From: Nitrospirales bacterium
GTDB lineage: Bacteria; Nitrospirota; Nitrospiria; Nitrospirales; UBA8639
DNA length: 64,000 bases
Direction of reading: 5' to 3'
Assembly: GCA_021604145.1 (NCBI GenBank)
Contig: BQIX01000002.1
Span: 9,250 to 73,249, forward strand
Shown: positions 12,063 through 48,784 of the stretch, piece by piece
How positions within the stretch are numbered: the first letter of the stretch is position 1
Layout: each line of letters starts with the position of its first letter
The notes under the pieces: generated by a model
Databases searched by the model: none
What the model saw: the letters and a program-made list of their open reading frames with translations, nothing else
What the model was told of the DNA's origin: nothing
Translations under genes and position numbers: made by a program

Positions 12063-12078
12063 AGAAGGAACTCGTTTC

Positions 12079-15698: not shown

Positions 15699-15789
15699 TC
15701 GAACTTGAAGTACATGAAATCGGGAACTTCTCCCGCACCGTATCGTTAGAAAAGACACAGGTGATCTTACCGCTTAAGGAGAACGTACC

Positions 15790-17154: not shown

Positions 17155-17231
17155 GCGTATCGCCTTGCAGTAAGAAATATATCGGAGGATAAACGTCGAG
17201 ACTCCGCGAAAGGAAAATTGGGAGGATCAAC

Positions 17232-23409: not shown

Positions 23410-23505
23410 ATGTCTTCCGCCAAAACGAAGTCGATTGAGATTCGTTATCGGGCACCAAAAGACTTCGACGCCATGAACCGCAGGATCGAGGTTGCGTCGC
23501 TATGA
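23410..23505 (+). CDS. 31-aa upstream ORF translationally coupled to the reductase gene
   Basis: Own translation: MSSAKTKSIEIRYRAPKDFDAMNRRIEVASL. AAGGAG lies upstream. Its stop overlaps the next start (ATGA at 23502-23505). Confidence 0.35.
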   Translation: MSSAKTKSIEIRYRAPKDFDAMNRRIEVASL

Positions 23506-25577
23506 CAGAGGCCCCTCTCACAAGAACTCACCGCCAACGCTTTCTCACTGTCGCCGTCATAGCTGCGTGGTTTTTAATGCTGGTGGGCCCTGGTTTCGCC
23601 CAAACCTCGCCTGAGGAACATGCCAGTCATCATCCGGACCAAGCCAACAGCTCAAGCGGAGCAGAAGGCGGCGAAAGGCAAGAGGGCGCCTCCGGTAGTG
23701 TGGTCGGCGGTCCTCCTGGAAGAAAGGGTGGTGGCCCGGGCAGCATGATGGGTGGCCCGGGCGGGGGCATGGACAAGATGATGGAAAAAATGGGGGCGCC
23801 TAAACCCAAAGCCTTATACCCCACACTCATGAGCCTTCCTGATTTGCCTGTTGAACAACGCGCCAAGGTGCAACAGCAGGCACATGAACGTATGAAGCAA
23901 GGGACAGCCTTGATGGCAGGAGGACTGAAATCCTTATCGCTGTCGGCCCCAACAAACAATTTTTTAGCTATGCAAGAGGCCACGAGGATGTTGCATGAGG
24001 GGATGTCTCAATTCGAAAGTGGTCTGGCTGCCCATCGAGCATTGGCAGAAGGCACGTCACCGCGCAATGTCGCTCTGCAATGGTTCAAGCAGGAAATGAA
24101 CCTGCTTCCTCCAAGGGAGGGCCAGCAGGCCCATGGGATTTTAGGGCTATCCTGGTTTCATTTCTATGTGATGCTGCTCCTTATCGGGTTTGCGGTGGCC
24201 ATGTTATTTCTCTACTTTTTCAAAATGCGCCGCGCGGCGGCATTGCTGAAACGACTTGCTGAGGATTCCGGTCCTGCGAATCCTCCACCAGCCGCTTCTT
24301 CTAAGAAACCAGCTACCACTGTCCCCGTCGAAGTGACACCATCTGGTGGAGGAGTTCCACCATCAATTTCCCAAGCCAAATCCGCCCGTCCGCCCACGTC
24401 GGAAGAAGTGAAACGTTTGGCAACGGCTTCTGCAGAATGCTGCGATGACTCAACAGACGTATGCGCAACCAAAGAGGACCAATCAACAGATCGACCTGAT
24501 ATCTCGAAGGGACTTCTGCCCGTCGCCAAGAAGAAACTCTGCAGACTTCGGGTCGCCCAAATCTACCAGGAAACCGTGGACGTCAAAACTTTCCGGCTCG
24601 TGGCCTGTCATGGAGGGGGCATTCCCTTCAGTTATCTGCCTGGGCAATTCCTCACGTTAACCATGCCGACCGGCGACAAGCCGATTCGTCGAAGCTATAC
24701 CATGTCATCTTCTCCAACTCAAGGATACTATTGCGAGATCACGGTGAAACGTGAAGAGCAAGGCGCCGGATCGCGCTATTTACACGACGCCGTCGAGGTA
24801 GGCGACACGCTTGAGGTTCAAGCCCCGAGCGGGAAGTTTGTGTTTACTGGGAAGGAAGCAGACAGCATTGTGCTCATCTCTGGCGGCGTCGGCATCACTC
24901 CAATGACGAGTATCACCAGGGCATTGACCGACATGGGTTGGCCCGGCGACATCTACTTCATCGCGGCGTGCCGCGATCAAGAACACCTCATCTTCCAGTC
25001 GGAATTAAAGACGCTTCAAGCGCGTCATCCAAATTTACATGTTTTTATCGCTATGAGTCGTCTGGAACAGGACGCCGACGGTTACCATCGCGGGCGGATT
25101 ACCAAGGAATTACTGGCGCAGTGGGTGCCTGGTATCGCCTCGAAGTGGATTCATCTGTGCGGGGCACCGCCCATGATGGATGCTATAAAGCAGATGTTGG
25201 GCGAGTTGGGCGTACCTGGGGAAAAGATTCACACCGAAAACTTTGGCTCGCAACAGAAACCGAAGGTCAGGGCTGCGAAACGCGAGGAAATTCTAAAAAC
25301 GACCCCGGTTGAGAAGACCGGGACGGTCACCTTTCAGAGATCGAATACATCAACGGAACTCATGCCGGATGAGACGGTCCTGGAGGCCTCCGAACGAGTC
25401 GACGTCACAATCGACTATTCCTGCCGGACTGGTTCGTGCGGAGAATGCAAGGTCAAACTCTTGTCCGGGTCAGTGACCATGGAAGTCGAGGACGGCCTGG
25501 ATCCAGAGGACCAAGCCGCAGGAATGATTCTCGCTTGCCAGGCCAAGTCCACCGACAAGGTGGCGGTCGATGCTTAA
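23502..25577 (+). CDS. membrane-anchored fusion: periplasmic His/Met/Gly-rich domain, TM helix, FNR-type FAD/NAD(P)-binding module, plant-type 2Fe-2S ferredoxin
   Basis: Signal peptide ending PGFAQT. HASHHPD and GSMMGGPGGGMDKMMEKMG. TM LSWFHFYVMLLLIGFAVAMLFLYFF. RRSYTMSS (RxYS FAD motif), LISGGVGITPM (NAD motif), C-terminal CRTGSCGECKVKL ... LACQA. Confidence 0.85.
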   Translation: MTEAPLTRTHRQRFLTVAVIAAWFLMLVGPGFAQTSPEEHASHHPDQANSSSGAEGGERQEGASGSVVGGPPGRKGGGPGSMMGGPGGGMDKMMEKMGAPKPKALYPTLMSLPDLPVEQRAKVQQQAHERMKQGTALMAGGLKSLSLSAPTNNFLAMQEATRMLHEGMSQFESGLAAHRALAEGTSPRNVALQWFKQEMNLLPPREGQQAHGILGLSWFHFYVMLLLIGFAVAMLFLYFFKMRRAAALLKRLAEDSGPANPPPAASSKKPATTVPVEVTPSGGGVPPSISQAKSARPPTSEEVKRLATASAECCDDSTDVCATKEDQSTDRPDISKGLLPVAKKKLCRLRVAQIYQETVDVKTFRLVACHGGGIPFSYLPGQFLTLTMPTGDKPIRRSYTMSSSPTQGYYCEITVKREEQGAGSRYLHDAVEVGDTLEVQAPSGKFVFTGKEADSIVLISGGVGITPMTSITRALTDMGWPGDIYFIAACRDQEHLIFQSELKTLQARHPNLHVFIAMSRLEQDADGYHRGRITKELLAQWVPGIASKWIHLCGAPPMMDAIKQMLGELGVPGEKIHTENFGSQQKPKVRAAKREEILKTTPVEKTGTVTFQRSNTSTELMPDETVLEASERVDVTIDYSCRTGSCGECKVKLLSGSVTMEVEDGLDPEDQAAGMILACQAKSTDKVAVDA

Positions 25578-25592
25578 AGAATTTGAAAACTC

Positions 25593-26357
25593 ATGAAGGA
25601 ACGTGAAGCCCTAACGATTGGCGGTCTGGTGCTCTTTCTGACTCTTTTCTGGCTCGGCTTTCTTGTCCACCGATCGCCACGTTTTGCAGGGAGTTTCTGG
25701 GGCGGTATGCTTGGTGTGAGCGGGGCCACGCTGATGCTCGTTCCACTGGCATACCTCGTCATCAAACGAGTGAAAACGCTCAAACAGGCCGTGACTCGAC
25801 GTGTGTCGATGCGTACCCTGCTTGCGTGGCACATCTATGCTGGTGTGGTAGGACCCATTTTAGTTTTGTTCCATACGGGCCATAAGTTTGAAAGTCCGTT
25901 AGGAATTGCTTTGACCAGCATGACGTTCATTGTCGTGTTGAGTGGATTCACCGGTCGCTATCTCATGGGTCAAATCTCTCAAGAGATTAAAGAAAAACGA
26001 TCCATGCTCAACGGGCTGAACTCCTCGTACCAGGAAACAAGGGAACGACTGCGAACGTGCTGCGCGGATAAAACGGCCCAACTTAAACCCTTTGATGGCT
26101 TTTTCTCCCGATTGGTGGGAGGAGCCTTCTTCAGCGCACAGGAACAGGAGACGGAAACGATGTCCATCGGCCTCCGTGCCATTCGGCTTTCTGATGCGAT
26201 TGCTGACCTTGAATACGCCATACGAACACACGAAACCTTCAAACGAATGTTTACCGTGTGGCTGAGAATTCACATCACTTTGTCCATGGTGCTCTATACG
26301 CTTCTCGCTCTCCACATTTGGGCAGCCATTCACTTTGGATTACGTTGGTTTTCATGA
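25593..26357 (+). CDS. polytopic membrane protein with two H-x13-H pairs (candidate di-haem b, ferric-reductase-domain or DUF4405-like)
   Basis: About 5 TM helices. WHIYAGVVGPILVLFH and IHITLSMVLYTLLALH each have exactly 13 residues between the His, inside hydrophobic segments. A ~100-aa polar loop lies between them. Confidence 0.6.
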   Translation: MKEREALTIGGLVLFLTLFWLGFLVHRSPRFAGSFWGGMLGVSGATLMLVPLAYLVIKRVKTLKQAVTRRVSMRTLLAWHIYAGVVGPILVLFHTGHKFESPLGIALTSMTFIVVLSGFTGRYLMGQISQEIKEKRSMLNGLNSSYQETRERLRTCCADKTAQLKPFDGFFSRLVGGAFFSAQEQETETMSIGLRAIRLSDAIADLEYAIRTHETFKRMFTVWLRIHITLSMVLYTLLALHIWAAIHFGLRWFS

Positions 26358-26377
26358 TGAAGACTGGGTGGTGATCT

Positions 26378-27178
26378 ATGGATAAGCTGCGAATCGTTGC
26401 ATTAACGCTTTTCACGATCTTAGGGGTATTAGGCCTTGTCTATACCAGCGTGGGAACTCCGATGGTTGCCAACACCTGGCAGCGATTAGTCAATCCAGGA
26501 GAGCTCTCCGTGGTCCATGCTTCTTTGGAACAGAATTGCGGATCCTGCCATACCGCTGTCATGGGAGTGGATGCGACGAAGTGCATTCTTTGCCATGCCA
26601 ATGAGGAATCGCTCCTGCAGCGTCAGCCGACGGCCTTTCATGCCGACCTAACGGAGTGTCGATCTTGCCATCTCGAACATCAAGGACACGTTCGAAAGCC
26701 AACGAATATGGATCACCGGGCTCTTGCCAAGATCGGCTTGTTCACCCTCCCGAAGGATGGAGATTCCCTTGGCGAGGCAGAGATGGTGCGCTGGAACCTG
26801 ACAAATTGGCTTGAGCATTCAGAAGTTTTGCTGTCTTCCCCGCTGAACAACCGTCACCTGGCGCCTGAAGAAGCGATTTTAAACTGTACCACCTGTCACA
26901 AAAATGATGACCGACATTTCGAACTTTTTGGCCAGGATTGTGCTGCGTGCCATGCCACACAGGCCTGGACCCTTCCCGAATTCCAGCACCCCCCCGGGAA
27001 CTCTATGGATTGCGTCCACTGTCATCAAGCGCCACCAAGCCATTATATGATGCATTTCACCATGATTTCCCAAAGAGTGGCTGGCCAGCCACGGGCACGT
27101 GTGGATCAGTGTTTTTTATGCCATCAGACTACCTCATGGCCGGATATTAAAAAAGCCGGGATGTATAAACATCATTAA
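26378..27178 (+). CDS. membrane-anchored heptahaem c-type cytochrome
   Basis: N-terminal TM anchor. Seven CxxCH motifs (CGSCH, CILCH, CRSCH, CTTCH, CAACH, CVHCH, CFLCH). Confidence 0.85.
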   Translation: MDKLRIVALTLFTILGVLGLVYTSVGTPMVANTWQRLVNPGELSVVHASLEQNCGSCHTAVMGVDATKCILCHANEESLLQRQPTAFHADLTECRSCHLEHQGHVRKPTNMDHRALAKIGLFTLPKDGDSLGEAEMVRWNLTNWLEHSEVLLSSPLNNRHLAPEEAILNCTTCHKNDDRHFELFGQDCAACHATQAWTLPEFQHPPGNSMDCVHCHQAPPSHYMMHFTMISQRVAGQPRARVDQCFLCHQTTSWPDIKKAGMYKHH

Positions 27179-29395: not shown

Positions 29396-29597
29396 GTTTC
29401 TTGACAGCCTAGCTGCCTAAGAATCCAGAAGTGCGATTTCTTTCTGGGTTCATAGCTGCGGTGTATGTATTCACCCAATGTAGGGGGCAGGACATGAGAA
29501 TAGACTCATCCCAAGGTTTACCCATGGAAGAATAGTGCATTGGTTTAAAGAAATTTGGCATACCGAAAAAATAGCCACTAAACGAGCGAGGCATACC

Positions 29598-30248
29598 ATG
29601 AACGGAACATCGATTATCGATAGCGGATTGAAAGAAAGAAAGGCCCTTGTGGAAGCGGCCCTGATTCAGAATCGCAAACAATTTCTGTCTTTTCTCCACC
29701 GACGGGAAGGGAGCTTGGAGTTTGTCGAAGACATCTTTCAGCAATTCTGTCTTCGTGCCCTCACCAATAGCGCCACCCTAAGAAATCCAGAAAGGGTCGT
29801 CGCGTGGCTCTATCGGATTCTCCATAGCACGTTGGCCGATTTTTTTCGAAGTGAAAACCGACGCCAACGTGACGAGTCAGCATACACCCAATATCAGACC
29901 GAACAGGGTGGTACCAAGGAGAATGATCCAGAGAAAATTTGCGCCTGTTTTACAAAGGTTTTGCCTACGCTCCAGCCCGGGTATTTTCATATGCTGGAGC
30001 GGATCGATCTGCGTGGAGAATCACGCGAAGAAGTCGCAAGGGATTTGGGCGTTACGAGCAACCTCGTACGAGTGCGGCTGCATCGCGCGCGGCGGGCGCT
30101 TAAGGAGGCACTCCTGGACTCATGCCAGGCTTGCTGTCATGAACAGGGATTCATGGACTGCGATTGTGTTGGAGGAGAAGAGGTGCACGGCATCAGTCGA
30201 AATCACACCAACTGTAATGCGGTGAGATCTTTAACGTCTTATATATGA
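29598..30248 (+). CDS. ECF-type sigma factor with Cys-rich C-terminus (CorE-like), copy B
   Basis: Paralog of 20224-20823. Linker CAC, sigma-4 LRGESREEVARDLGVTSNLVRVRLHRARRAL, then CQACCHEQGFMDCDC. ATG 29598 chosen. Confidence 0.8.
   Translation: MNGTSIIDSGLKERKALVEAALIQNRKQFLSFLHRREGSLEFVEDIFQQFCLRALTNSATLRNPERVVAWLYRILHSTLADFFRSENRRQRDESAYTQYQTEQGGTKENDPEKICACFTKVLPTLQPGYFHMLERIDLRGESREEVARDLGVTSNLVRVRLHRARRALKEALLDSCQACCHEQGFMDCDCVGGEEVHGISRNHTNCNAVRSLTSYI
30213..30241 (+). promoter_or_regulatory. candidate ECF-type promoter TGTAAT-N16-CGTCTTA, copy 2
   Basis: Same bipartite motif and same downstream TGATTGAAATT as copy 1. It lies within the last codons of sigma B, upstream of the 30311-35425 gene string. 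Confidence 0.45.
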
Positions 30249-30310
30249 TTGAAATTTATGAACCGGACCTTCATGAACACAGATTATATCGTGAAACAGG
30301 GAGGGATGTG

Positions 30311-31315
30311 ATGAATACTCCAAATAAACCTTGGACAATTGTTCTAGCGGGAGGGGAAGGAGAGCGCGTAAGGCCATTGGTGCAATCCTGGCTGGGGCGG
30401 CACAGGCCTAAACAGTATTGTACATTTGTGGGAACCCGGTCCATGTTTCAGCATACCCTCCACCGGGCAGCCAAACTCACGACTCCCGAACGCATGGTGA
30501 CCGTGGTGGCTCATGGTCATGGGAGTGAACCATGGACTCAGTTTGACGGAGTACCGGGGATCAAAGTCCTACGTCAACCACAAAACCGGGACACCGCGGC
30601 TGGAATATTTTTTCCTCTCGCGTACATTCGCGCGCGCGATCCGGACGCGACAGTAGTCTTGTACCCATCCGACCACTTTGTATTTCCGGAAGATCGATTT
30701 TTGGAAGTGGTGCAGTGTGCAGTGCAGACGGCGGAGACACAACCCTGGCGCTTGGTCCTGCTTGGGGTTCAACCGGATCGCCTTGAGTTGGAATATGGGT
30801 GGATTCACCCAGGGCCTACCCTCAATCAGTCTACCTCTTGCCACGTGCGGGCGATAAAGGCATTTCTGGAAAAACCGAATTTTCTTCAAGCCAGTCGAGC
30901 GATGAATTCTGGAGCCGTATGGAATACGCTTATTTTGGCTGCCAAGTTACAAAAACTGTGGGAGCTTGGCTGGCAATGTTTTCCAGAGATGATGCCGCTT
31001 TTTGACCGGCTGTGTGGGGCGATCGGAAGCCCAGAAGAAGGCAAGGTTTTAGATGCCATCTATCGGGTCATGCCCGAGAGAAATTTTTCCTCAGGGTTGC
31101 TTCAGCGGGTTCCAGAACACGTAGCCATGATTCAACTGAATGGCGTTCTTTGGAGCGACTGGGGCAAGCCGGAACGAATTGTTGAGACGCTGCTGAAGAT
31201 CGGCAAGCAACCCGCGTTCCCTTTGAGCCTCCTTTCAGGTCTGTCAGCCATAGATACAAGTAGAGTAAAAGTCCGGAACATCTGTGTTTCCGTTAAGAAG
31301 CACGTTTCGGTTTAG
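30311..31315 (+). CDS. sugar-phosphate nucleotidyltransferase (mannose-1-phosphate guanylyltransferase-like)
   Basis: WTIVLAGGEGERVRPL ... PKQYC NTP-transferase N-terminus. ATG 30311 follows GGGAGGGA. Confidence 0.8.
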   Translation: MNTPNKPWTIVLAGGEGERVRPLVQSWLGRHRPKQYCTFVGTRSMFQHTLHRAAKLTTPERMVTVVAHGHGSEPWTQFDGVPGIKVLRQPQNRDTAAGIFFPLAYIRARDPDATVVLYPSDHFVFPEDRFLEVVQCAVQTAETQPWRLVLLGVQPDRLELEYGWIHPGPTLNQSTSCHVRAIKAFLEKPNFLQASRAMNSGAVWNTLILAAKLQKLWELGWQCFPEMMPLFDRLCGAIGSPEEGKVLDAIYRVMPERNFSSGLLQRVPEHVAMIQLNGVLWSDWGKPERIVETLLKIGKQPAFPLSLLSGLSAIDTSRVKVRNICVSVKKHVSV

Positions 31316-31348
31316 AAAGACAACAAACTTAAAGTAAGGAGAGGCATC

Positions 31349-31567
31349 ATGAAAAAGCAGCAGTTATTCAAAAAGAGACCTCCCGATGAGGAAGCACCGG
31401 ATCCAACTCAAGGTAGTCAGGAAACATCAAAAGTTGATGATCTTCAAGTCTGCATCGCCCATCGGGCCTATGAGCTGTATGAGCAAGAGGGCTGTTGCCA
31501 TGGCCATGACTTTGATCACTGGCTTCAAGCTGAGCGAGAAGTTATAAAAGTTGAAACCGAAAAGTAG
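31349..31567 (+). CDS. DUF2934-like small protein
   Basis: IAHRAYELYEQEG..HGHDFDHWLQAEREV matches the DUF2934 pattern as recalled. Confidence 0.65.
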   Translation: MKKQQLFKKRPPDEEAPDPTQGSQETSKVDDLQVCIAHRAYELYEQEGCCHGHDFDHWLQAEREVIKVETEK

Positions 31568-31636
31568 CATGGGCTGCCAGCGAGGTATCGTTGAAAAAGA
31601 TCAGAAGCGGCTCACATGAAGGACAAGAGGGAATGT

Positions 31637-32200
31637 ATGAAACCGACTAACCATCGGTCTGGAGAGGAATCCGATGAAGGAGATCTCATGAACGCTACTG
31701 AAGGGGAAGGGCGCCGAACATTTCTTGGATGGGTGAGCGCGGCCATTGCTGGGGCAATTGGGTTGGTCGTGGGAATCCCCCTTGTAGGTTACACCATACT
31801 GCCTGCCCTGAAACGACAGAAACTGAGCTGGCATGACGTCGGACCAGAAAAAGGCCTTGAACCGTCCTCACCCAAGGAAATGGACTGCATTCATTCCGTC
31901 ACTGATGGATGGCAGAAGACGACAACGAAGAAATCGGTGTGGGTTGTCAAAGATAAGAGAGGAGCGATGACAGTCTTTTCTCCTTTATGTACTCATTTGG
32001 GCTGTGGTTATCGGTGGGAGGGGGATCAGCAACAATTTTACTGCCCCTGCCACAATAGTTACTTCAGCGTGGATGGCAAAGTTCTGGAGGGCCCAGCTCC
32101 TCGTCCCTTGGATACGCTCCCAGTAAAAATTGAAAACGGACGAGTGTTGGTCATCTACAAAGAATTTAAAGCCGGGACTGCCAAAAAAATCGAATTGTAA
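31637..32200 (+). CDS. Rieske 2Fe-2S subunit of a cytochrome bc-type complex
   Basis: Tat-like GRRTFLGWVSAAIAG. Rieske boxes CTHLGCG and CPCHNSYF. Confidence 0.9.
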   Translation: MKPTNHRSGEESDEGDLMNATEGEGRRTFLGWVSAAIAGAIGLVVGIPLVGYTILPALKRQKLSWHDVGPEKGLEPSSPKEMDCIHSVTDGWQKTTTKKSVWVVKDKRGAMTVFSPLCTHLGCGYRWEGDQQQFYCPCHNSYFSVDGKVLEGPAPRPLDTLPVKIENGRVLVIYKEFKAGTAKKIEL

Positions 32201-32215
32201 AAATATAATTGAGGT

Positions 32216-33544
32216 ATGAGGTGGTGTGTGAGTCGTCGCATCGTTCAGTGGCTTGACAATCGTCTGAATCTTTCTCCCATCCGAGTGGCTCTTTTGGATG
32301 AGCCGATTCCAGGCGGAGCAAGCTGGATTTATATTTTTGGCAGCATCACCTTGTTTTTCTTTCTCCTCCAAATGGTCACCGGCATGTTTCTATCAATCTA
32401 TTACTCGCCTTCGACGGAACATGCCTATGTGAGCATTCAGTACATCATGGATGAAGTGGAATTTGGCTCATTCATCCGCGGACTCCATCATTGGGGTGCC
32501 AGTGGCATGATGGTGGCTATTGGACTGCACATGTTGCAAGTGTTTTTGTACGGCGCGTACAAAAAGCCTCGTGAACTGTTGTGGGTGGTTGGCGTCGTGC
32601 TCCTGATCCTGACATTAGCGTTTGGATTCAGCGGATACCTCCTTCCATGGGATCAGCGGGCCTATTGGGCTACCCAAGTCGGAATCAACATGGTTGGGAC
32701 GCTTCCTGTGATTGGAGATGTCCTGATCCGAGTCATCCGTGGTGGCCAAAATCTTGGTGCCATGACTCTCACTCGATTTTTTGCACTCCACACCTTGTTT
32801 CTCCCATGGCTTTTAATGACTCTTGTGGTGCTGCATCTCTTCATATTGCGGCGAGTAGGTCCGGCTGGACCATGGGATGAAGCACAGGCAGCCCGCATTA
32901 GTGAACCGTTTTGGCCCAAACAAGTCGCCATGGATGCTGTGGCTATTGGCGTGGCGTTTGCGCTTATTGCCAGCCTGGCTCTGTTGGTTCCAGCACCTCT
33001 GTCTGATCCAGCTAATCCTTCAGATACAAGTTTTACTCCGGTTCCGGAATGGTATTTTCTTTTCTATTACCAGCTCCTCAAATATTTGGAAGGACCGCTT
33101 GAAATTGTGGGAACGGTGGTGCTCCCTATTCTGTTTATCCTGGGTCTGTTTGCTCTCCCCTGGCTGGATCGGGGCCAGGGAAGACGGCCGGCTTCTCGTC
33201 CAATGGTCATGGGGGCTGGCGCGGGTTTTTTGTTGGTGGTCGTTACCTTCTTAGGTTTGTCGTCCTATGAAGTGGCTTCCATTCCAAGAAGCGATCCTTC
33301 AGTTCTTCGAGGAACAGCTCTCTACCAGGAACTTGATTGCGCGGGTTGCCATCGCATTCATGGGGAAGGGGAGGCCTTTGCTCCAGATCTTTCGTATGTC
33401 GGAGATACTCGGAGCCGGGACTGGCTGATCCAACACTTCAGGGATCCCCAAACCTTAGTCCCTGATTCAGACATGCCGGCATACGGGCTCAACGACCAGG
33501 AGTTGAATGATTTGACCAACTACATGGTGACTCTGAAACGGTAA
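32216..33544 (+). CDS. cytochrome b (b6 plus subunit-IV-like) fused to a C-terminal monohaem cytochrome c domain
   Basis: His pairs in LHHWGASGMMVAIGLHML and FFALHTLFLPWLLMTLVVLHLF, a PEWYFLFYY motif, and C-terminal CAGCH. Confidence 0.9.
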   Translation: MRWCVSRRIVQWLDNRLNLSPIRVALLDEPIPGGASWIYIFGSITLFFFLLQMVTGMFLSIYYSPSTEHAYVSIQYIMDEVEFGSFIRGLHHWGASGMMVAIGLHMLQVFLYGAYKKPRELLWVVGVVLLILTLAFGFSGYLLPWDQRAYWATQVGINMVGTLPVIGDVLIRVIRGGQNLGAMTLTRFFALHTLFLPWLLMTLVVLHLFILRRVGPAGPWDEAQAARISEPFWPKQVAMDAVAIGVAFALIASLALLVPAPLSDPANPSDTSFTPVPEWYFLFYYQLLKYLEGPLEIVGTVVLPILFILGLFALPWLDRGQGRRPASRPMVMGAGAGFLLVVVTFLGLSSYEVASIPRSDPSVLRGTALYQELDCAGCHRIHGEGEAFAPDLSYVGDTRSRDWLIQHFRDPQTLVPDSDMPAYGLNDQELNDLTNYMVTLKR

Positions 33545-33586
33545 CGAAGTGACATCACGTAATCATCAAGGGGGAGGAATGCTCAG

Positions 33587-34111
33587 ATGAACATTCAGCA
33601 GTTTTGTCGCAAAAGAGTTTGTCCGGCTGTGGAAGTTGTCCTTAAAGGATTCCAGAATTGGGGGATTGGGGTTTTCCCGGCTACTCCAATTTTGGCGGTA
33701 GCATTTTTCATCAGTCTAGGGTTTGCTCCCCCAATCTTTGGGGCATCAGATAAAGAACCGGCGCCCTCCTACCCCTCGGTTGAAATTCCCCCTGAATACC
33801 AAGACAAACAGATGCCTAAAGGATGGCGGACGGATTCGAAGGTGCTTACCGCGGGGGAGGCGATTTATGAGGGTAGCGCAAATCCCGACGTCAATTGCGC
33901 GGGGTGTCACGGCATTGACGGCAAACCTACCCGGAAAGGAAAAGGGGCGCCGGACCTTTCCGATCCGCAAGTAGCTCAAAAAAGTGATGCCCTGTGGTTT
34001 TGGGAAATTTCTGAGGGAAAGCGCCGGACCAAAATGCGAGGCCATGTGAAACATCTCACAGAAGAGCAGCGTTGGCAGGTGATTGCTTACATGCGGACCT
34101 TTGCTCAATGA
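33587..34111 (+). CDS. membrane-anchored or secreted monohaem cytochrome c
   Basis: CAGCHGIDG haem motif. N-terminal hydrophobic anchor. GGGGGAGGA RBS. Confidence 0.8.
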   Translation: MNIQQFCRKRVCPAVEVVLKGFQNWGIGVFPATPILAVAFFISLGFAPPIFGASDKEPAPSYPSVEIPPEYQDKQMPKGWRTDSKVLTAGEAIYEGSANPDVNCAGCHGIDGKPTRKGKGAPDLSDPQVAQKSDALWFWEISEGKRRTKMRGHVKHLTEEQRWQVIAYMRTFAQ

Positions 34112-34216
34112 ACCAAGTAATAACGTATGGATTGTTCGTCGCGGAAGCTGGGCCGCTCTCAAACATCAATTTTGGCACAGTTGGCAAAACCGTTTTGAAT
34201 TCAAAAGGAGGGTACC

Positions 34217-35425
34217 ATGAGAATTTTTTTGGTTACCATGCTGGCGCTAGCCACGATTTCCGTCAGCCTAACCATTCTGGTTCCACCTAATCCCGCTTCA
34301 GCCGTTCCATCTTTTTCCCGCTTGCATGGCTTGGCATGTCACGAATGTCATTCAGCGTTCCCGCGACTCAATCCGTATGGGATGGATTATAAGCAGCGCG
34401 GGTATCGCCTTCCCGGAGAAGAGGGAAAATTTATTTGGGACCAGAACACCCTTCCGATTTCAGCATTGGCCGTAGGGCGACTTCGGATTAGCCATCGGGA
34501 TAATCCGGTGACCGGAGCGCGAACCCGCACTCGAAGCCGGTTCGAACTCGAAGAAGTGGAACTCATGATTGCTGGTACTGTTGCACCCAAGGTGGGGTAT
34601 TTTGTGGAGTTTGAACAGGAAATTGCTGATGGTGAGGAATTTACTGCCGATCAAGTCTGGGTTCAATTCAGCGACCTGTTGCCCAATAGTCTGCTGAATC
34701 TACGAGCGGGAAAGATGCTAAATGAAAACTATTATCTTTCCCAGAAACGACGGCTCACCTTTCAACGGTATCTTTCCCCGATCACCTTTAATGTCACCGG
34801 TGTGGAGTTGAATGGAGCATGGAGGCGACTGCGGTACGCCGGAGGAATCGTCAACGATGAGCGAGACCCCGGTACCAACACGGCAACCGTCAACCTAGAA
34901 AATCGACTTCAGGGCTATTATGCCTGGACGACCTATACCATTGCGGACCAAGTTTTGGGGATTCGTTATATCAATACGAAAAACAATTCTGACAATCCTT
35001 CTCCTGTCATTGATGGTCGAAATCGGCAGCAACTCGATGCCACCGTGAATCTGTGGTATGGCCCTCTCGAACTCATTTTTGGGTATTTTCATAATTGGGA
35101 TATCGGGGGAGTGAACGGCCAACAACGTCGAAACTATTTAGTGGAAGCTATTTTCGAAGTGGTCCCGGAAAAACTGTTCCTCGATGGCCGATTCGAATTG
35201 CAAGATACCGCATTTGTGACAGGGGGTCCCAATAACCCAGCCACCGCCAATGGTACGCAAGTTTCTGTGAATGCCACATACTACTTGCACCCGAATATAC
35301 GGCTGATCGCCGAATTCGACAAAGTGAGTGGCGAGGGAACGGGGATTTATGGGTTTCCTGGTCCCAATAGTAGCGCCACGAATAGTGAAGAGCGCTACAT
35401 GCTTGGGTTTCAGATCGGGCTGTAA
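34217..35425 (+). CDS. Cyc2-like fused monohaem cytochrome-porin (outer-membrane beta-barrel with N-terminal CxxCH)
   Basis: Signal peptide. A single CHECH about 10 aa after the predicted cleavage site, followed by P-x-L (FPRLNPYG). About 350 aa of alternating beta-strand-like sequence ending YMLGFQIGL. Confidence 0.55.
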   Translation: MRIFLVTMLALATISVSLTILVPPNPASAVPSFSRLHGLACHECHSAFPRLNPYGMDYKQRGYRLPGEEGKFIWDQNTLPISALAVGRLRISHRDNPVTGARTRTRSRFELEEVELMIAGTVAPKVGYFVEFEQEIADGEEFTADQVWVQFSDLLPNSLLNLRAGKMLNENYYLSQKRRLTFQRYLSPITFNVTGVELNGAWRRLRYAGGIVNDERDPGTNTATVNLENRLQGYYAWTTYTIADQVLGIRYINTKNNSDNPSPVIDGRNRQQLDATVNLWYGPLELIFGYFHNWDIGGVNGQQRRNYLVEAIFEVVPEKLFLDGRFELQDTAFVTGGPNNPATANGTQVSVNATYYLHPNIRLIAEFDKVSGEGTGIYGFPGPNSSATNSEERYMLGFQIGL

Positions 35426-35478
35426 TGTGGTGCAGAGGCAAGGGGGCCTCTTAGTAGGCCCTGGCTTGTTCAAACGGG

Positions 35479-36339
35479 TTATTGGAAGGCCTCCAGAATC
35501 TCTTCGCGCTTTTTCCGATACTCTGGTTCACTGATCAGGCCTTGCTGATGCCATGATTTGAGTTGACGAAGCTTTTCCTCAGATGTGAATGCGGGAGAGG
35601 AAGGCAGGGGATCAGAATCGGCGTTGAGAGGGAGGACAGGGTCTGGGACATGAGTCAACAAAGCGTTGTAATGGATCGAAACTGTGGGCGCGGAGGGTCT
35701 CCCTGGGAGAAATTCCGAAGTGGCAGTTGGCGTGAGGATCGTTTGGGAGGGACCGGCCACAAAATGAAAATCGGGATCATTCAGCGGTGTGAGTGGATTT
35801 TCTTGGACTTGCTTTCGCTTCCGTTCCGATGTCATAGGCGTTTCCACATGAGTGAGGACAAACGTGAGTTGTTCCCCTTTAACAAAAAGGCCCCCAGAAG
35901 TGATGACCGGTACGCCATCTTCTCGCGGGCGGTTCATAACAAAGACCACGATTTCTTCAGACTGTGCTTTGGCGAATGCTGTCTTTATTTGAGGCGCAAG
36001 AAGCTTACTGATGTCAGGGGGAAAGACAGGCTGGGGAATGGCGTCCTGTCGGAAGACATAGTAATTAAGAAAACTCACCTCCCTTTGGATGTTCAAAGAC
36101 TGCAAGATCGACTGAAGATCTTCCACCGTGAAGGTAATGGGATGACTGTTGGTCGCACGGTGTTCCTTGGACTTATACAAGGGGCTATGGAGCCGCACAT
36201 TTAAAATTGGGTCTTGGTAGACCAGTCGAGAAAATATAGGTGCGCTGGTACAGCCAGTCAGCAACAAGACGATGAATACCACGAAACTGACAGAGCCCAT
36301 CTTCAAACTTTTACGGCGGGGAGCTACGAGAAAGTTCAT
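35479..36339 (-). CDS. lipoprotein with C-terminal SHOCT-like domain
   Basis: Lipobox LLTGCTS. C-terminus KLRQLKSWHQQGLISEPEYRKKREEIL resembles SHOCT. Confidence 0.7.
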   Translation of the reverse strand: MNFLVAPRRKSLKMGSVSFVVFIVLLLTGCTSAPIFSRLVYQDPILNVRLHSPLYKSKEHRATNSHPITFTVEDLQSILQSLNIQREVSFLNYYVFRQDAIPQPVFPPDISKLLAPQIKTAFAKAQSEEIVVFVMNRPREDGVPVITSGGLFVKGEQLTFVLTHVETPMTSERKRKQVQENPLTPLNDPDFHFVAGPSQTILTPTATSEFLPGRPSAPTVSIHYNALLTHVPDPVLPLNADSDPLPSSPAFTSEEKLRQLKSWHQQGLISEPEYRKKREEILEAFQ

Positions 36340-40052: not shown

Positions 40053-40187
40053 AGCAGAAGGTGCCAGTGGAGGGTTGCCAACTGGGACGACTGTTCAACG
40101 GAGATAGGCATTGGAGTTCCCTGAGGGGAAGCCACCATTTGAAGAGCGAGGCAAAGATTGACTGATTGGGAAAAGGAAGCGCGCAAT

Positions 40188-42035
40188 ATGAACATGGTCA
40201 AAGACCCGGTTTGCGGCATGATGGTGGACGAAGATAAAAGTCTTAGAATGTTCTATCAAGGTGAGGCCTGGTATTTTTGCTCCGACCTTTGCCGGCATGG
40301 CTTCTTAGAAAATCCTGAAAGGTTTGTGGAGAGGCTGGATTCTTCCATCTCGGATTTGGGTGAAATCTCTCGACGTATTGCCTATTTCTCGATGGAGGTG
40401 GGAGTGGATTCCGACATGCCCATTTATAGCGGGGGTTTGGGGATCCTGGCTGGTGATACCTTAAAGTCTTGTGCCGATCTTAAAGTTCCGATGGTAGGCG
40501 TCAGCATGCTGTATGCTAACGGGTATTTCGACCAGAAACTGGATGAATGGGGTAATCAGCAAGAACTGCCCATGACTTGGGATCCCGCTCGCTTAGCTCG
40601 TCGTCTTCGGGTGACGACTCAAGTGCCTATCGAAAATCGAATAGTTACTGTTCAAGCCTGGCAATATGACATTGTCGGCGCCACCGGGTTTACGGTTCCC
40701 CTCATTCTTCTTGATACCAACGTAAATGGAAATGCAGTGTTTGATAGGGAGTTGACCACTTGGCTCTACGGGGGGGACGAACGGTATCGAATAGCCCAGG
40801 AAATTGTGTTGGGTCTTGCAGGAGTGCGCATGCTTCGAGCGTTAGGATACACAGAACTTCAGCGTTTCCATATGAATGAAGGACACGCAGCCTTTCTGGC
40901 CATAAAGCTTTTGGAGGAACAGGGGAATCGCGGAGGTTCGGACTGGGACTTTTCCGGTATTCGCAAGAAATGTATTTTTACCACCCACACCCCCGTTTCT
41001 GCTGGTCACGACCGTTTTTCCTACGATCTCGTGAGGCAGGTATTGACGGAACCCTTGCCTTTGGAACTCATTCAAATGCTCGGGGGAAAAGACCAGCTGA
41101 ATATGACCTATTTGGCCTTGAATATGAGCGACTACATCAATGGTGTTGCCAAGAGGCATGGGGAAGTGGCCCAAGAGATGTTCCCGGGTTACTCAATCGA
41201 TTCCATTACCAATGGGGTTCACTCCGTCACCTGGACCAGTGAGAGCTTCAAAGCTTTGTATGATCGATACATCCCTGGGTGGAGGAATGACCCGTTTGGG
41301 CTTCGGCATGCGATTAGCATCCCGAAGCAAGAAGTTTGGGATGCCCATGTGGAAGCCAAAACCCGGCTCATTGAGGAAGTCAACCGTCGCACCCAATTGT
41401 CTTTCAACAACGATGTGCTGACCCTGGGCTTCGCACGAAGAGCCACGCCGTACAAACGCGCTGATCTAATCTTTTTCGATCCTGATCAGTTGGCAGAGAT
41501 CGCCAAAACCGTCGGACCGATTCAACTCATCTTCGGGGGCAAAGCCCATCCTCGGGATGGCGGGGGAAAGGATATGATTCGGCGAGTGGTCCAGTTTGCG
41601 CGGCAATTCAAGAATGACATATCAATCGCCTATCTTGAGAATTATGACATCGCGTTAGCCAAACTCCTCACTTCCGGGGTTGACCTCTGGCTGAACACCC
41701 CCCATCGACCCTTGGAAGCCTCAGGTACCTCGGGAATGAAAGCCGTCCATAACGGGATTCCAAATTTCAGTGTGCTTGACGGATGGTGGATTGAAGGCCA
41801 CATCGAGGGCGTGACAGGATGGTCCATTGGCCCAAGAACTCCGACCCAATCGGAGACAGGGGATCAGGAAGATGCTCAAGAACTGTATCAGAAATTGCGC
41901 ACCGTGATCGTGCCCATGTTTTACCAAGAACGGGACCAATGGATTAATGTGATGCGCCAATCCGTTGCCTTCAACGCGTCCTTTTTTAACACGCATCGAA
42001 TGGTTCAGCAGTATGCAGTCAATGCCTATGTATGA
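40188..42035 (+). CDS. alpha-glucan (glycogen) phosphorylase, short GT35 form, with N-terminal YHS/TRASH domain
   Basis: N-terminus [35 protein letters not shown]. Then YFSMEVG ... PIYSGGLGILAGDTLKS and the PLP-lysine block EASGTSGMKA. Confidence 0.85.
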   Translation: MNMVKDPVCGMMVDEDKSLRMFYQGEAWYFCSDLCRHGFLENPERFVERLDSSISDLGEISRRIAYFSMEVGVDSDMPIYSGGLGILAGDTLKSCADLKVPMVGVSMLYANGYFDQKLDEWGNQQELPMTWDPARLARRLRVTTQVPIENRIVTVQAWQYDIVGATGFTVPLILLDTNVNGNAVFDRELTTWLYGGDERYRIAQEIVLGLAGVRMLRALGYTELQRFHMNEGHAAFLAIKLLEEQGNRGGSDWDFSGIRKKCIFTTHTPVSAGHDRFSYDLVRQVLTEPLPLELIQMLGGKDQLNMTYLALNMSDYINGVAKRHGEVAQEMFPGYSIDSITNGVHSVTWTSESFKALYDRYIPGWRNDPFGLRHAISIPKQEVWDAHVEAKTRLIEEVNRRTQLSFNNDVLTLGFARRATPYKRADLIFFDPDQLAEIAKTVGPIQLIFGGKAHPRDGGGKDMIRRVVQFARQFKNDISIAYLENYDIALAKLLTSGVDLWLNTPHRPLEASGTSGMKAVHNGIPNFSVLDGWWIEGHIEGVTGWSIGPRTPTQSETGDQEDAQELYQKLRTVIVPMFYQERDQWINVMRQSVAFNASFFNTHRMVQQYAVNAYV

Positions 42036-42578: not shown

Positions 42579-43763
42579 ATGAAAAGTAAAAACCATCTGT
42601 TGCGATCTGAGCGGACGGCTGGGCTGCTGATGATCGGCGCTATGACGTTGGCACTAATAGCGGCTAATTCGCCTCTTCAGCCAATTTATCAAACAATCCA
42701 CCATACACCTGTACACGTTCGATTTGGTCCATTAATAATTGATGAGCCACTGGTTGTATGGATCAACGAAGGGCTCATGGTTATTTTTTTTCTTTTGGTG
42801 GGCCTCGAAATCAAACGAGAATTGCTGGTAGGGCAACTCAGGACTCCGGCTCTCTTTGCCCTTCCAGGCCTCGCTGCTCTTGGAGGTATGGCACTCCCTG
42901 CAGCCATCTACTCAACCATCAACTGGACTGATCCCGTGTTACTTCGTGGGTGGGCGATTCCTACGGCAACCGACATCGTGCTTGCCCTCGGAATTTTGTC
43001 ATTTTTCAATGCTCGAATACCTCATAGTCTCAAGGTCTTCCTCATGGCCGTTGCGGTCTTTGATGATATTGGAGCCGTCTTTATCATTGGACTGTTCTAT
43101 GGTCAAGAACTGGCTCTTCTTCCTTTAGCCCTGGCTGCAATTGGGGGAACAGCATTAGTGGGCCTCAACATTTTTAATATTGTCAGACCTGCTGCTTACG
43201 TATTCGTGGGATTATTTCTTTGGGTCTCGACGTTGAAGGCTGGGATTGAGCCAGCGTTGGTTGGCGTGCTTATCGGACTAGCGGTTCCATTACGCGTCCC
43301 AGATCGAGCGGGCTATTCTCCACTGGGTGAAACGGAGAGACAATTGCGGCCTTGGGGATATTTGTGCGTCGTTCCCTTATTTGCGTTCTTCAACTCTGGT
43401 GTCTCTTTTTCTGGTGCTGAGGTTGAGACGCTCTTCAATAAATCATCGGTTGGAATCATGACGGGGTTGTTTCTTGGCAAGCAACTCGGAATATTTGTTG
43501 CCGCATGGATGGCCGTACAACTGAGATTGGCACAGCTACCGGATGAAATAAGTTGGGCGCAGCTCTATGGCGTCGCGTTGTTGGGGGGAATTGGCTTCAC
43601 GATGAGCCTTTTTGTTTCTTCGCTGGCCTTCACTGAACCGAGTCTCATCCAATCTTCCAGATTCGCGATCCTAACAGGTTCAATTTTATCAGCTGTCACA
43701 GGAATGGTGGTCCTTTACCATTCGACCATGAGAAGTAACTATGGAAAGGTCCAAGCATGCTAA
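42579..43763 (+). CDS. nhaA: Na+/H+ antiporter NhaA
   Basis: About 12 TM. NhaA blocks WINEGLMVIFFLLVGLEIKRE, IPTATDI, and AVFDDIGAV with the paired Asp. Confidence 0.9.
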   Translation: MKSKNHLLRSERTAGLLMIGAMTLALIAANSPLQPIYQTIHHTPVHVRFGPLIIDEPLVVWINEGLMVIFFLLVGLEIKRELLVGQLRTPALFALPGLAALGGMALPAAIYSTINWTDPVLLRGWAIPTATDIVLALGILSFFNARIPHSLKVFLMAVAVFDDIGAVFIIGLFYGQELALLPLALAAIGGTALVGLNIFNIVRPAAYVFVGLFLWVSTLKAGIEPALVGVLIGLAVPLRVPDRAGYSPLGETERQLRPWGYLCVVPLFAFFNSGVSFSGAEVETLFNKSSVGIMTGLFLGKQLGIFVAAWMAVQLRLAQLPDEISWAQLYGVALLGGIGFTMSLFVSSLAFTEPSLIQSSRFAILTGSILSAVTGMVVLYHSTMRSNYGKVQAC

Positions 43764-43877
43764 GAACAGACCGATATTCTTTGGGTAGGTTTATTTGGTC
43801 TGTACATGAAATTTGAGACTTTCTTTTTATAGAGGCAGTTCTTTGAAGAACAATTTGGTTAAAAGGAAAGTATTACG

Positions 43878-45828: not shown

Positions 45829-45848
45829 CGCGGAAGAGGTGGACAACC

Positions 45849-48073: not shown

Positions 48074-48094
48074 AGGAACGATTAGAGGTCAAGG

Positions 48095-48772: not shown

Positions 48773-48784
48773 GAGAACGGCAAA

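Follow-up and report, generated by a model that had tools for sequence, protein, structure and literature searches.

A Cyc2-like fused cytochrome-porin is predicted to be encoded directly behind a bc-type complex and a monohaem cytochrome c in NPIRA04, a Nitrospirales MAG and marine relative of nitrite oxidisers, and the cluster looks like a wired route for extracellular electrons into the cell. We give this reading about an even chance: which genes are present, their motifs, homology and conserved order, and the predicted fold could be established directly, and from these we infer outer-membrane location, haem attachment, the path and direction of the electrons and the substrate. The window (the whole stretch of DNA analysed, 64,000 nucleotides) comes from the lineage of Nitrospirales nitrite oxidisers, which is not known for iron or manganese oxidation. 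The original prediction had read the cluster as a candidate route for extracellular Fe(II) or Mn(II) oxidation; its observations held and its interpretation was supported in part, with Fe(II) or Mn(II) as the substrate being suggested by analogy.

Four genes in an operon-like array

Four tightly packed genes lie on one strand at 31616-35425, between a DUF2934 gene and a lipoprotein gene:

31349..31567, + strand, DUF2934 protein of 72 aa (Pfam DUF2934, 48.9 bits), just 5' of the Rieske gene
31616..32200, + strand, Rieske 2Fe-2S subunit of a bc/b6f-type complex (Pfam Rieske, 41.9 bits)
32216..33544, + strand, cytochrome b with a C-terminal monohaem c domain (Pfam Cytochrome_B 192.7, Cytochrom_B_C 45.6 and Cytochrom_C 45.3 bits)
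33587..34111, + strand, monohaem class-I cytochrome c (Pfam Cytochrom_C 42.2 bits, Cytochrome_CBB3 35 bits)
34217..35425, + strand, Cyc2-like fused monohaem cytochrome-porin of 402 aa, with an AAGGAGG site 6 nt before the ATG
35479..36339, - strand (convergent), lipoprotein of 286 aa with lipobox LLLTGC and a C-terminal SHOCT domain (Pfam SHOCT, 20.2 bits, below cutoff)

All four open reading frames were found where they had been placed originally, and the 402-aa gene does follow a complete bc-type complex and a monohaem c in an operon-like array, with intergenic gaps of 15, 42 and 105 bp (9, 20 and 27 bp for the same array in the relative L005). No terminator-like hairpins were seen between the four window genes, which are proposed to form a single transcription unit in the host with the Cyc2-like gene last.

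The Rieske start was revised. It had been put at 31637, in a reading frame that opens at 31616, and the ATG at 31688, which is preceded by a GAAGGAG ribosome-binding site, is now favoured as the likely translation start, giving a protein of 170 aa (orthologues have 170-172 aa). The protein has a single TM anchor, a twin-arginine (TAT) motif RRTFL at 33, CTHLGC at 125 and CPCH at 143, and matches the NCBIfam PetC and bc1 Rieske models, both under their cutoffs. The cytochrome b combines a b6-like N-terminal half with a subunit-IV-like half (HX13H at 91, HX14H at 192), its closest solved structures are cytochrome b6 chains (E 3e-61), and its Cytochrom_C domain (residues 365-441) carries CAGCH at 375. 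This haem domain of its own had been pointed out originally; the domain is present, but 120/120 of the homologues listed (345-464 aa) carry the same Cytochrome_B and Cytochrom_C pair, and by sequence comparison the fusion is standard Nitrospirota complex III architecture.

The monohaem cytochrome c has its one CAGCH at 104, and a hydrophobic segment around residues 29-54 may be an N-terminal signal or an anchor. The protein may act in the periplasm as the carrier linking the outer-membrane protein with the bc complex or with an oxidase, and an orthologous or analogous gene lies directly 5' of the Cyc2-like gene in 16/16 Nitrospirales loci, the copy in L099 being apparently frameshifted. Similarly, a SHOCT lipoprotein gene lies directly 3' of the Cyc2-like gene in 16/16 loci; that of Nitrospira sp. 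Kam-Ns4a (27% identity, E 7e-24) is on the same strand as the Cyc2-like gene. The single-sequence AF2 model of the lipoprotein was uninformative (pLDDT 42). The DUF2934 gene occupies the equivalent position in L001-L003, L013 and L014 and is close by in L099, where the bc genes are absent; it is a conserved neighbour, and whether it belongs to the module is uncertain.

The 402-aa protein belongs to the broad Cyc2-like family

The protein is divided into a signal peptide (residues 1-29), a haem domain (about 30-78) and a predicted 16-strand beta-barrel (81-401). As originally described, a signal peptide, which is of the Sec type and ends in PASA before VPSF, is followed by CHECH and FPRL. The CHECH (residues 41-45) starts at residue 12 of the mature chain, in keeping with the about 10 residues given originally, and contains both of the two cysteines in the protein. 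FPRL is at 48-51, with PxL four residues past CXXCH; the haem-domain sequence reads AVPSFSRLH-GLA-CHECH-SAF-PRL. Homologues lacking the motif had been named as grounds for rejecting the assignment. Instead, CXXCH occurs exactly once in 108/108 aligned homologues, C41, C44, H45 and L51 never vary and P49 is kept in 107/108; CHECH is not a chance motif.

The only Pfam match of the protein is to Porin_4 (28.7 bits, residues 214-373). The expected beta-barrel was recovered in the AlphaFold2 model as a 16-strand porin barrel (pLDDT 84.7, pTM 0.82), and a Foldseek search with this model returned the 16-strand porins Omp32, PorB, OmpF and OprP (E 1e-10 to 1e-14), of which PorB and OprP are also the published structural matches of Cyt572 and Cyc2 PV-1.

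The signal peptide, single CXXCH and PxL found here are the features by which Cyc2 is defined (Keffer 2021, PMC8406198). The layout had been called exactly that of Cyc2, which is supported for these features and for the 16-strand barrel. The diagnostic upstream motif AXPXFAR[Q/K][T/Y] is matched in part, by AVPSFSRLH at 4/7 specified positions. A phmmer comparison with P0100, which has the canonical upstream motif, gave E 7.9e-8, and hhalign against the clade with a QT-type motif (AIPSFSRQT) gave 99.3% and E 1.8e-20, the alignment to canonical-motif proteins spanning the haem domain and half of the barrel. The family profile search retrieved 5043 clusters at 50% identity (E<=1e-3). Judged from sequence and model, the protein is a member of the broad Cyc2-like fused cytochrome-porin family, the references being canonical-motif homologues. 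That it represents a Nitrospirales-specific branch of Cyc2-type cytochrome-porins, which would be located in the outer membrane with haem attached, is evenly balanced in our judgement.

Proposed electron route and alternative explanations

In the proposed route, the barrel-embedded haem would be reduced at the cell surface by a small soluble donor of single electrons, most plausibly Fe(II) if characterised Cyc2 proteins are taken as a guide, and the electron would then move to the periplasmic monohaem cytochrome c encoded in the same cluster. From there it could run downhill to a terminal oxidase, or it could enter the bc complex of the cluster at its c-haem domain. The bc complex, running in reverse and spending proton-motive force, would then reduce the quinone pool and so feed reverse electron transport and CO2 fixation. 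The same logic is thought to apply to nitrite-derived electrons in Nitrospirales.

The linkage of a Cyc2-like gene to a bc complex, put forward in the original prediction as notable, is real but lineage-restricted: bc genes are linked in 11/16 independent Nitrospirales loci, and no bc complex was found near the Cyc2-like gene at 77 distant loci, 37 of which have at least 2.5 kb upstream. The order Rieske, cytochrome b/c, cytochrome c, Cyc2-like is present in 7/7 marine-clade and 3/8 Nitrospira-clade loci, and 5/8 of the latter are without bc linkage. The invariant core is formed by the cytochrome c, Cyc2-like and SHOCT lipoprotein genes (16/16). In L004 the bc genes are gone from between the NTP-transferase and cytochrome c genes with the same genes flanking. 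By these comparisons the bc linkage has been repeatedly lost, the cytochrome c and Cyc2-like genes staying paired. Conversely, Ca. Manganitrophus SA1 has Rieske, cytochrome b/c and cytochrome c genes without Cyc2, and N. bockiana likewise has a related bc cluster with no Cyc2. Given that unrelated neighbours (NTP-transferase, ECF sigma factor) are syntenic about as well as the module, adjacency alone is weak evidence of coupling, and the conserved order is in part a matter of common descent.

These data bear on a different explanation, in which the genes are neighbours by descent: the bc complex would be one of 2-3 paralogous complex III copies serving nitrite-driven forward and reverse transport, and the cytochrome c, Cyc2-like and SHOCT genes would be a functional unit in their own right, exchanging electrons with the general periplasmic cytochrome c pool and having no particular bond with this bc complex. 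The invariant trio with its less frequent bc genes, the arrangement in L004, the bc clusters without Cyc2 and the absence of bc complexes at the distant loci all favour it, as does the fact that Nitrospirales as a rule have several complex III copies, to which forward and reverse electron flow have been ascribed. Against it, the array is operon-like with very short gaps in several lineages, and the linkage survives deep divergence, the four-gene order being retained in Kam-Ns4a with a Cyc2-like protein just 24% identical. The cultivated nitrite oxidiser Ca. Nitronereus thalassa also carries the same operon in identical gene order (cytochrome b 80% and Cyc2-like protein 83% identical to the window), where the linked bc complex adjoins mdh, gltA and korAB and matches the published "third copy" of complex III, i.e. 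an additional one. We regard descent alone as possible but less likely than the proposed route.

It is improbable, in our view, that the module serves metal handling or protection, with the cytochrome-porin oxidising (possibly reducing) a metal species that is toxic or reactive, for example Fe(II) or Cu(I), at the outer membrane, or else exporting electrons, and with their disposal through the cytochrome c pool. Relatives adjoin CusB/CzcB-type RND pumps, YHS proteins or a VIT1 iron transporter, and copper-homeostasis genes are abundant in the window:

9494-15258, Cus-like RND system
17232-19978, CopA/CopB
40158-42035, YHS-domain protein
58419-60911, P1B ATPase with YHS and HMBD domains

However, the metal genes of the window are 15-23 kb off in a broadly syntenic region and none is adjacent, the module-adjacent ATPase in Nitrospira has the P2-type domain set (Cation_ATPase_N, Cation_ATPase_C) and not a heavy-metal one, and no metal-responsive regulator was tied to the operon. 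An ordinary diffusion porin with a structural or sensory haem and no electron transfer through the membrane would fit the general 16-strand barrel and the sole Pfam match to Porin_4, but is very improbable given that CXXCH, PxL and the upstream motif are (nearly) invariant in >100 homologues while the barrel diverges, that a cytochrome c gene is adjacent in every Nitrospirales locus, and that characterised family members are Fe(II) oxidases (PMC8406198, PMC13647500).

Comparison with known systems

The wired route proposed here can be set beside several published systems. Cyc2 has been divided into clusters 1-3 (McAllister 2020; Keffer 2021, PMC8406198), and Nitrospira homologues have already been reported and assigned to cluster 3 (FeGenie 2020, for N. 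defluvii; Yu et al. 2022; 10.1101/2024.12.25.630300). These are the same kind of protein in the same taxon, although in the accessible parts of the reports three Nitrospira clades are mentioned and the clade may differ from that of the window protein. In those parts the authors were unable to connect the homologues with iron or manganese oxidation, leave the function among iron, manganese or neither, and describe no neighbourhood with a bc complex, cytochrome c or SHOCT lipoprotein; Cyc2 homologues in Nitrospira are known, and a description of the bc linkage was not found in the literature as far as it was accessible. Cluster 3 is the least reliable for function (PMC8406198), and an E. coli-expressed cluster-3 Cyc2 from another order of Nitrospirota reportedly oxidised Fe(II) (PMC13647500).

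The complex III paralogues of Nitrospirales (N. moscoviensis CIII_2 and the N. thalassa third copy) share the Rieske protein, fused cytochrome b/c and extra cytochrome c gene. The third copy is the direct orthologue of the window complex, whereas CIII_2 has been described with a dihaem c, the extra cytochrome here being monohaem; no Cyc2-like gene behind the complex is mentioned in the published descriptions.

With the Cyc2 cytochrome-porins of Acidithiobacillus ferrooxidans (Cyc2), Mariprofundus (Cyc2 PV-1) and Leptospirillum (Cyt572), the window protein shares a Sec signal, a single CXXCH near the mature N-terminus, PxL, an A-x-P-x-F-x-R motif with identical 3-residue spacing ahead of the first Cys, and a tiny haem domain fused to a predicted 16-strand PorB/OprP-like porin; cyc1 adjoins cyc2 there as the cytochrome c gene adjoins the Cyc2-like gene here. 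It differs in being shorter (402 aa, against 446-487 aa in the distant Cyc2-like homologues recovered), in its nitrite-oxidiser lineage and in the conserved SHOCT lipoprotein gene behind it.

The downhill and uphill Fe(II) branches (rus/petI) of A. ferrooxidans follow the same proposed logic, from Cyc2 to a periplasmic c-type carrier and on to an oxidase or a reversed bc complex. In that species cyc2 shares the rus operon with cyc1, the cox genes and the gene for rusticyanin, and bc1 is encoded in a separate pet operon. In the window, by contrast, the Cyc2-like gene is directly behind the bc genes, the bc complex is of a b6-like type carrying a fused c domain, and the stretch from the conserved upstream neighbours to the SHOCT gene downstream contains neither a cupredoxin nor an oxidase gene. 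MtoAB, PioAB and MtrAB are also outer-membrane conduits proposed for Fe(II) oxidation, but consist of two proteins, a decahaem cytochrome threaded in a barrel of 24-32 predicted transmembrane regions, whereas the window protein combines one haem and a predicted 16-strand barrel in one polypeptide.

Genes of the Cyc2-like cluster

The Rieske, cytochrome b, cytochrome c and 402-aa Cyc2-like genes lie on the same strand with intergenic gaps of 15, 42 and 105 bp, and a convergent lipoprotein gene follows.

Genes between 31.3 and 36.4 kb of the window
31349-31567, + strand: small DUF2934 protein (Pfam/NCBIfam assignments)
31616-32200 (ORF), + strand: Rieske protein (Pfam Rieske, 41.9 bits)
32216-33544, + strand: cytochrome b with C-terminal c-haem domain (Pfam Cytochrome_B, 192.7 bits; Cytochrom_B_C, 45.6 bits)
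33587-34111, + strand: monohaem cytochrome c (single CAGCH)
34217-35425, + strand: 402-aa Cyc2-like protein (CHECH; Pfam Porin_4, 28.7 bits)
35479-36339, - strand: convergent lipoprotein gene with C-terminal SHOCT domain (lipobox LLLTGC, 286 aa)

A strong AAGGAGG site is located 5' of the 402-aa gene. No terminator-like hairpin was detected in the three gaps by a promoter/terminator scan of positions 31200-35700, in which the counts were at or below the shuffled expectation and which is informative only with regard to the absent internal terminator. Since the ORFs, domain assignments (Pfam/NCBIfam), ligand motifs and gaps were all confirmed, the array of Rieske, b-c fusion, cytochrome c and Cyc2-like genes described in the original prediction is correct in all essentials.

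Haem site and family of the 402-aa protein

Residues 1-29 of the 402-aa protein read as a Sec-type signal, with M-R followed by a hydrophobic stretch (KD peak 3-21) and ASA immediately before V30. The mature N-terminus is VPSFSRLH-GLA-CHECH-SAF-PRL and the only two cysteines in the protein are both within the CHECH at 41-45. Exactly one CXXCH was found in each of 108 aligned homologues, among which P31, C41, C44, H45, L51 and G55 are invariant, and a chance occurrence of the motif was rejected because of this invariance. The PXL motif is located four residues past the CXXCH (P49 in 107/108 and L51 in 108/108 sequences). The signal peptide, the single CHECH close to the mature N-terminus and the P-x-L after it had all been read from the nucleotide sequence in the original prediction, and all were recovered here.

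Cyc2 has been defined by five features, i.e. a signal peptide, one CXXCH, an upstream AXPXFAR[Q/K][T/Y] motif that was called unique to Cyc2, a PXL four residues downstream and a 16-strand porin (Keffer 2021, PMC8406198). Four of the five are present in the 402-aa protein, the barrel as a prediction, and the upstream motif is present in part: AVPSFSRLH retains A, P, F and R, with the replacements A>S, [Q/K]>L and [T/Y]>H. The relaxed form of this motif was found in 97 and the strict form in 5 of the 108 sequences, and the spacing of three residues to the first cysteine is the same as in homologues with the canonical motif, e.g. the distant homologue P0100 (AVPSFARQT-GQP-C).

A phmmer search of 5.8 billion sequences connected the 402-aa protein to P0100, which has the strict AVPSFARQT, with an E-value of 7.9e-8. 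When the Nitrospirales clade was compared with a clade of consensus AIPSFSRQT by profile-profile alignment (hhalign), the probability was 99.3% (E 1.8e-20) over 195 columns, corresponding to the haem domain and about half the barrel. The proteins with Cyc2-type upstream motifs that were matched by the Nitrospirales clade are 446-487 aa long, and an exhaustive profile search returned 5043 clusters at 50% identity, most of them matched over the full length (380-500 aa). Pfam and NCBIfam contain no Cyc2 model and the remote homologues are all named 'hypothetical protein'. Cyc2 homologues have been published for N. defluvii and other Nitrospirales (FeGenie 2020; Yu et al. 2022; 10.1101/2024.12.25.630300), and the Nitrospira sequences were placed in cluster 3 as three clades of their own with their function left undecided by the authors. 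Based on the four features, the homology and these published cluster-3 Nitrospira sequences, the 402-aa protein is very probably a member of the broad Cyc2-like family.

The beta-barrel that had been proposed was also obtained by structure prediction. An AlphaFold2 model built with the homologue alignment (pLDDT 84.7, pTM 0.82) has a short helical N-terminal domain at residues ~30-78 (pLDDT 72-90) followed by 16 predicted beta strands at 81-401. With this model Foldseek matched only 16-strand porins in the PDB (BpsOmp38, PorB, Omp32, OmpF and OprP, E 1e-10 to 1e-14), of which PorB and OprP were earlier reported as best fold matches of Cyt572 and Cyc2 PV-1 (Keffer 2021, PMC8406198, among sources). 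The Pfam Porin_4 match (28.7 bits) is compatible with this fold, and a PDB search with the 402-aa sequence found no relative.

The bc complex

The Rieske protein contains the cluster ligands (CTHLGC at 125 and CPCH at 143) and a TAT (twin-arginine) signal (RRTFL at 33), and its start is likely the ATG at 31688, which has GAAGGAG just upstream. The cytochrome b has two bis-His haem b sites (HX13H at 91 and HX14H at 192) and is b6-like (PDB cytochrome b6 chains matched at E 3e-61), and a c-type haem acceptor for the Rieske centre is present in its Cytochrom_C domain (residues 365-441, CAGCH at 375). Fusion of a c-haem to cytochrome b is the norm for complex III in Nitrospirota and shared across the phylum; it is therefore not peculiar to the window cluster and was rejected as the mark of a special complex.

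Two complex III copies are typical in Nitrospirales and are thought to serve forward and reverse electron flow. A third copy, located next to gltA, mdh and korAB, has been published for Ca. Nitronereus thalassa, a nitrite oxidiser in culture. The locus of this strain in our survey (L013) matched the context of the third copy exactly and the Cyc2-like gene comes after that bc complex. The Cyc2-linked complex is thus an accessory copy, at least in Ca. Nitronereus thalassa, which gives a modest argument for a dedicated role. No Cyc2 gene adjoins the related bc clusters of Ca. Manganitrophus SA1 and N. bockiana.

Conservation of gene order among relatives

The 402-aa protein is 100% identical to NPIRA04_03650 from a Nitrospirales MAG, 79-91% identical to proteins of marine Nitrospirales including Ca. 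Nitronereus thalassa, and 55-61% identical to those of Nitrospira species. Neighbourhoods were compared for 16 independent Nitrospirales loci; a scan of the genome collection with the single protein gave four close loci and a metagenome scan with the homologue alignment was added. The order Rieske, cytochrome b/c, cytochrome c, Cyc2-like and SHOCT was found in 7/7 marine-clade loci (the window, L001, L002, L003, L013, L014 and L016). In the Nitrospira clade the bc genes are kept in three loci (L005, with intergenic gaps of only 9-27 bp, L097 and L098) and five loci are without them (L004, L009, L011, L015 and L099). A distance tree places one linked locus among the unlinked ones, a pattern suggestive of repeated loss of the linkage. 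In Nitrospira sp. Kam-Ns4a the order is multihaem c, Rieske, cytochrome b/c, POR subunit, cytochrome c, a 413-aa Cyc2-like protein and SHOCT, and this Cyc2-like protein is only 24% identical to that of the window and has a near-canonical AIPAWARKY motif.

A monohaem cytochrome c gene directly upstream and a SHOCT lipoprotein gene directly downstream of the Cyc2-like gene were present in 16/16 loci. Among 77 distant Cyc2-like loci from metagenomes, 37 of which had at least 2.5 kb of upstream sequence, none had a Rieske or cytochrome b gene nearby; one distant homologue (P0095, 31% identity) is flanked by VIT1 and cysteine dioxygenase genes. Given that the trio occurs in all 16 loci while the bc genes are absent from five of them and were not seen near the Cyc2-like gene at any of the distant loci, the invariant unit is cytochrome c, Cyc2-like protein and lipoprotein. 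The bc link, although common, is facultative and confined to Nitrospirales. The idea that the adjacent cytochrome c is a part of the bc complex rather than a partner of Cyc2 was rejected, since this cytochrome c remains beside the Cyc2-like gene at loci without the bc genes.

Several further observations were made at these loci. The SHOCT lipoprotein (35479-36339, - strand; also in L004, L005, L009, L011, L013, L015 and L096-L099), of which the Kam-Ns4a copy is 27% identical, may be an unrecognised partner of the cytochrome-porin; its single-sequence AF2 model was unusable (pLDDT 42). At the Kam-Ns4a locus (L096:1430-9981) the multihaem cytochrome, Rieske and cytochrome b/c genes are located between subunit genes of a pyruvate/2-oxoglutarate:ferredoxin oxidoreductase, with POR gamma and alpha upstream of the bc genes and the TPP-binding beta subunit downstream, and such a bc/oxoacid-oxidoreductase neighbourhood recurs in L013, where the bc/Cyc2 cluster adjoins mdh, gltA and korAB. 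In the Nitrospira locus L004 (2806-3528) the bc genes are replaced, between the NTP-transferase and cytochrome c genes, by the gene of a 240-aa multi-pass membrane protein that has one CAECH motif and is not matched by Pfam; this protein may be an alternative membrane electron acceptor. In L099, a groundwater Nitrospira contig, the cytochrome c gene that precedes the Cyc2-like gene (5513-5966) matches the query in two overlapping frames, which suggests a frameshift, reflecting either a pseudogene or an assembly error.

Proposed electron route and alternatives

From the gene content, motifs, predicted fold, homology and conserved order we infer a route of four steps. The barrel would reside in the outer membrane and enclose the small haem domain, and a dissolved one-electron donor would reduce the haem. 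The best guess for this donor is Fe(II), by analogy with the Cyc2 proteins that have been characterised, among them a Nitrospirota cluster-3 Cyc2 that was active in E. coli (PMC13647500). The adjacent cytochrome c would take the electron across the periplasm, from where it could pass to a terminal oxidase or, alternatively, enter the co-encoded bc complex at its c-domain. In the latter case the complex, running in reverse and driven by the proton-motive force, would reduce quinone. Nitrite is a much weaker reductant than Fe(II) at neutral pH, and an Fe(II) route would therefore require less proton-motive force than the reverse flow driven by nitrite that these organisms are already believed to perform. 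We regard the chances of the overall account, from Cyc2-like protein through cytochrome c to oxidase or bc complex, as evenly balanced. Functional coupling of the Cyc2-like protein to the bc complex falls slightly short of an even chance, and Fe(II) as the substrate, an assignment by analogy, is put forward tentatively.

A rather unlikely alternative is that the adjacency results mainly from shared ancestry and that the cytochrome c/Cyc2-like/lipoprotein trio acts on the general cytochrome c pool; the five bc-free loci are compatible with it, and the accessory nature of the bc complex in Ca. Nitronereus thalassa argues modestly for a dedicated role. A role in metal handling or electron export appears improbable: copper-homeostasis genes are scattered through the window and its relatives and caution over cluster 3 is expressed in FeGenie, but the copper/metal genes of the window are only loosely associated, 15-23 kb off, and for this reason such a role is kept as a minor alternative. 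A plain porin with a non-conducting haem is highly improbable, considering the haem motif invariant in all aligned homologues.

The electron route from the Cyc2-like protein to cytochrome c can be extended to a broader joint claim, which we consider unlikely as a whole: many Nitrospirales nitrite oxidisers, including Ca. Nitronereus thalassa, would carry a dedicated, self-contained electron-uptake operon for a second lithotrophic donor, in which an outer-membrane haem pore of the Cyc2-like type would act with a periplasmic cytochrome c and an additional complex III to deliver electrons from dissolved Fe(II), or from Mn(II), reduced minerals or cathodes, directly to the quinone pool.

Other features of the window

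Three consecutive genes at 23502-27178, ~4.4 kb upstream of the Rieske gene and kept in three marine-clade loci (L001-L003), encode a 691-aa protein that has reductase domains (FAD, NAD and 2Fe-2S) and whose N-terminal half is unannotated, a 254-aa protein without family and a 266-aa membrane-anchored NapC/NrfH-like cytochrome with seven CXXCH motifs; this trio may be another electron-transfer module. At 29535-31315 the gene for an ECF-type sigma factor whose C-terminal tail is rich in cysteine (CQACCHEQGFMDCDC) overlaps an NTP-transferase (mannose-1-phosphate guanylyltransferase-like) gene by 4 nt. In the marine clade this gene pair is kept immediately 5' of the bc/Cyc2 cluster, and a regulator of the region that senses redox state or metals may be encoded here.

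Copper-homeostasis genes are densely represented at 9494-19978, 40158-42035 and 58419-60911. They encode a Cus-like efflux system (OEP/CusB/RND), CopB together with the multicopper oxidase CopA, and a P1B ATPase that carries YHS and HMBD domains. In addition, a glycogen-phosphorylase-like protein is unusual in being fused to a YHS metal-binding domain, and this fusion occurs near the module in the Nitrospira loci L098 and L099 as well. At 42579-51281 an NhaA Na+/H+ antiporter gene precedes an operon for a V/A-type ATPase (subunits B, D, I, DUF2764 and A), which is probably the alternative, Na+-linked enzyme that has been discussed for some Nitrospirales.

Significance and comparison with known systems

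Nitrospirales are the most widespread nitrite oxidisers, and their Cyc2 homologues, together with their excess over ammonia oxidisers in Fe- and Mn-removing sand filters, have been a puzzle in several studies. Both the presence of Cyc2 homologues in Nitrospira and the open question of their role are already in the literature. In the papers searched, no description was found of a bc-complex operon link of the Nitrospira Cyc2-like gene, of the identity of the Cyc2-linked bc complex with the 'third complex III' of the cultivated strain, or of the invariant cytochrome c and SHOCT-lipoprotein partners. What is added here is that the Cyc2-like gene is in a putative operon with cytochrome c and a bc complex in most lineages, that this bc complex is an extra third copy in one cultivated strain and that the pairing of the Cyc2-like gene with cytochrome c and lipoprotein is constant. 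The vague 'homologue present' thereby takes the form of a concrete hypothesis, testable in an available culture. If the uptake operon were real, 'nitrite oxidisers' would be facultative metal oxidisers, which would help to explain their excess abundance in Fe- and Mn-rich filters and deep-sea mineral habitats. If Fe(II)/Mn(II) uptake proved true, the nitrogen and metal cycles would have to be budgeted jointly for oceans, sediments and water treatment; if it failed, cluster-3 Cyc2 would be unfit as a marker of iron oxidation in such genomes.

The window cluster provides a useful and testable context for a known type of protein and is not a new kind of system. Fe(II) oxidase activity has been demonstrated only for A. 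ferrooxidans Cyc2, Cyt572, Cyc2 PV-1 and a Ca. Mariimomonas Cyc2 (PMC8406198; PMC13647500). In MtrAB, MtoAB and PioAB a separate multihaem periplasmic cytochrome is inserted in a large outer-membrane barrel with 24-32 predicted transmembrane regions (He 2017), whereas the window protein has 16 predicted strands, carries the haem on the same polypeptide and is accompanied by a monohaem cytochrome. On account of the 16 strands and the fused single haem, a porin-cytochrome complex of the Mtr/Mto type was rejected.
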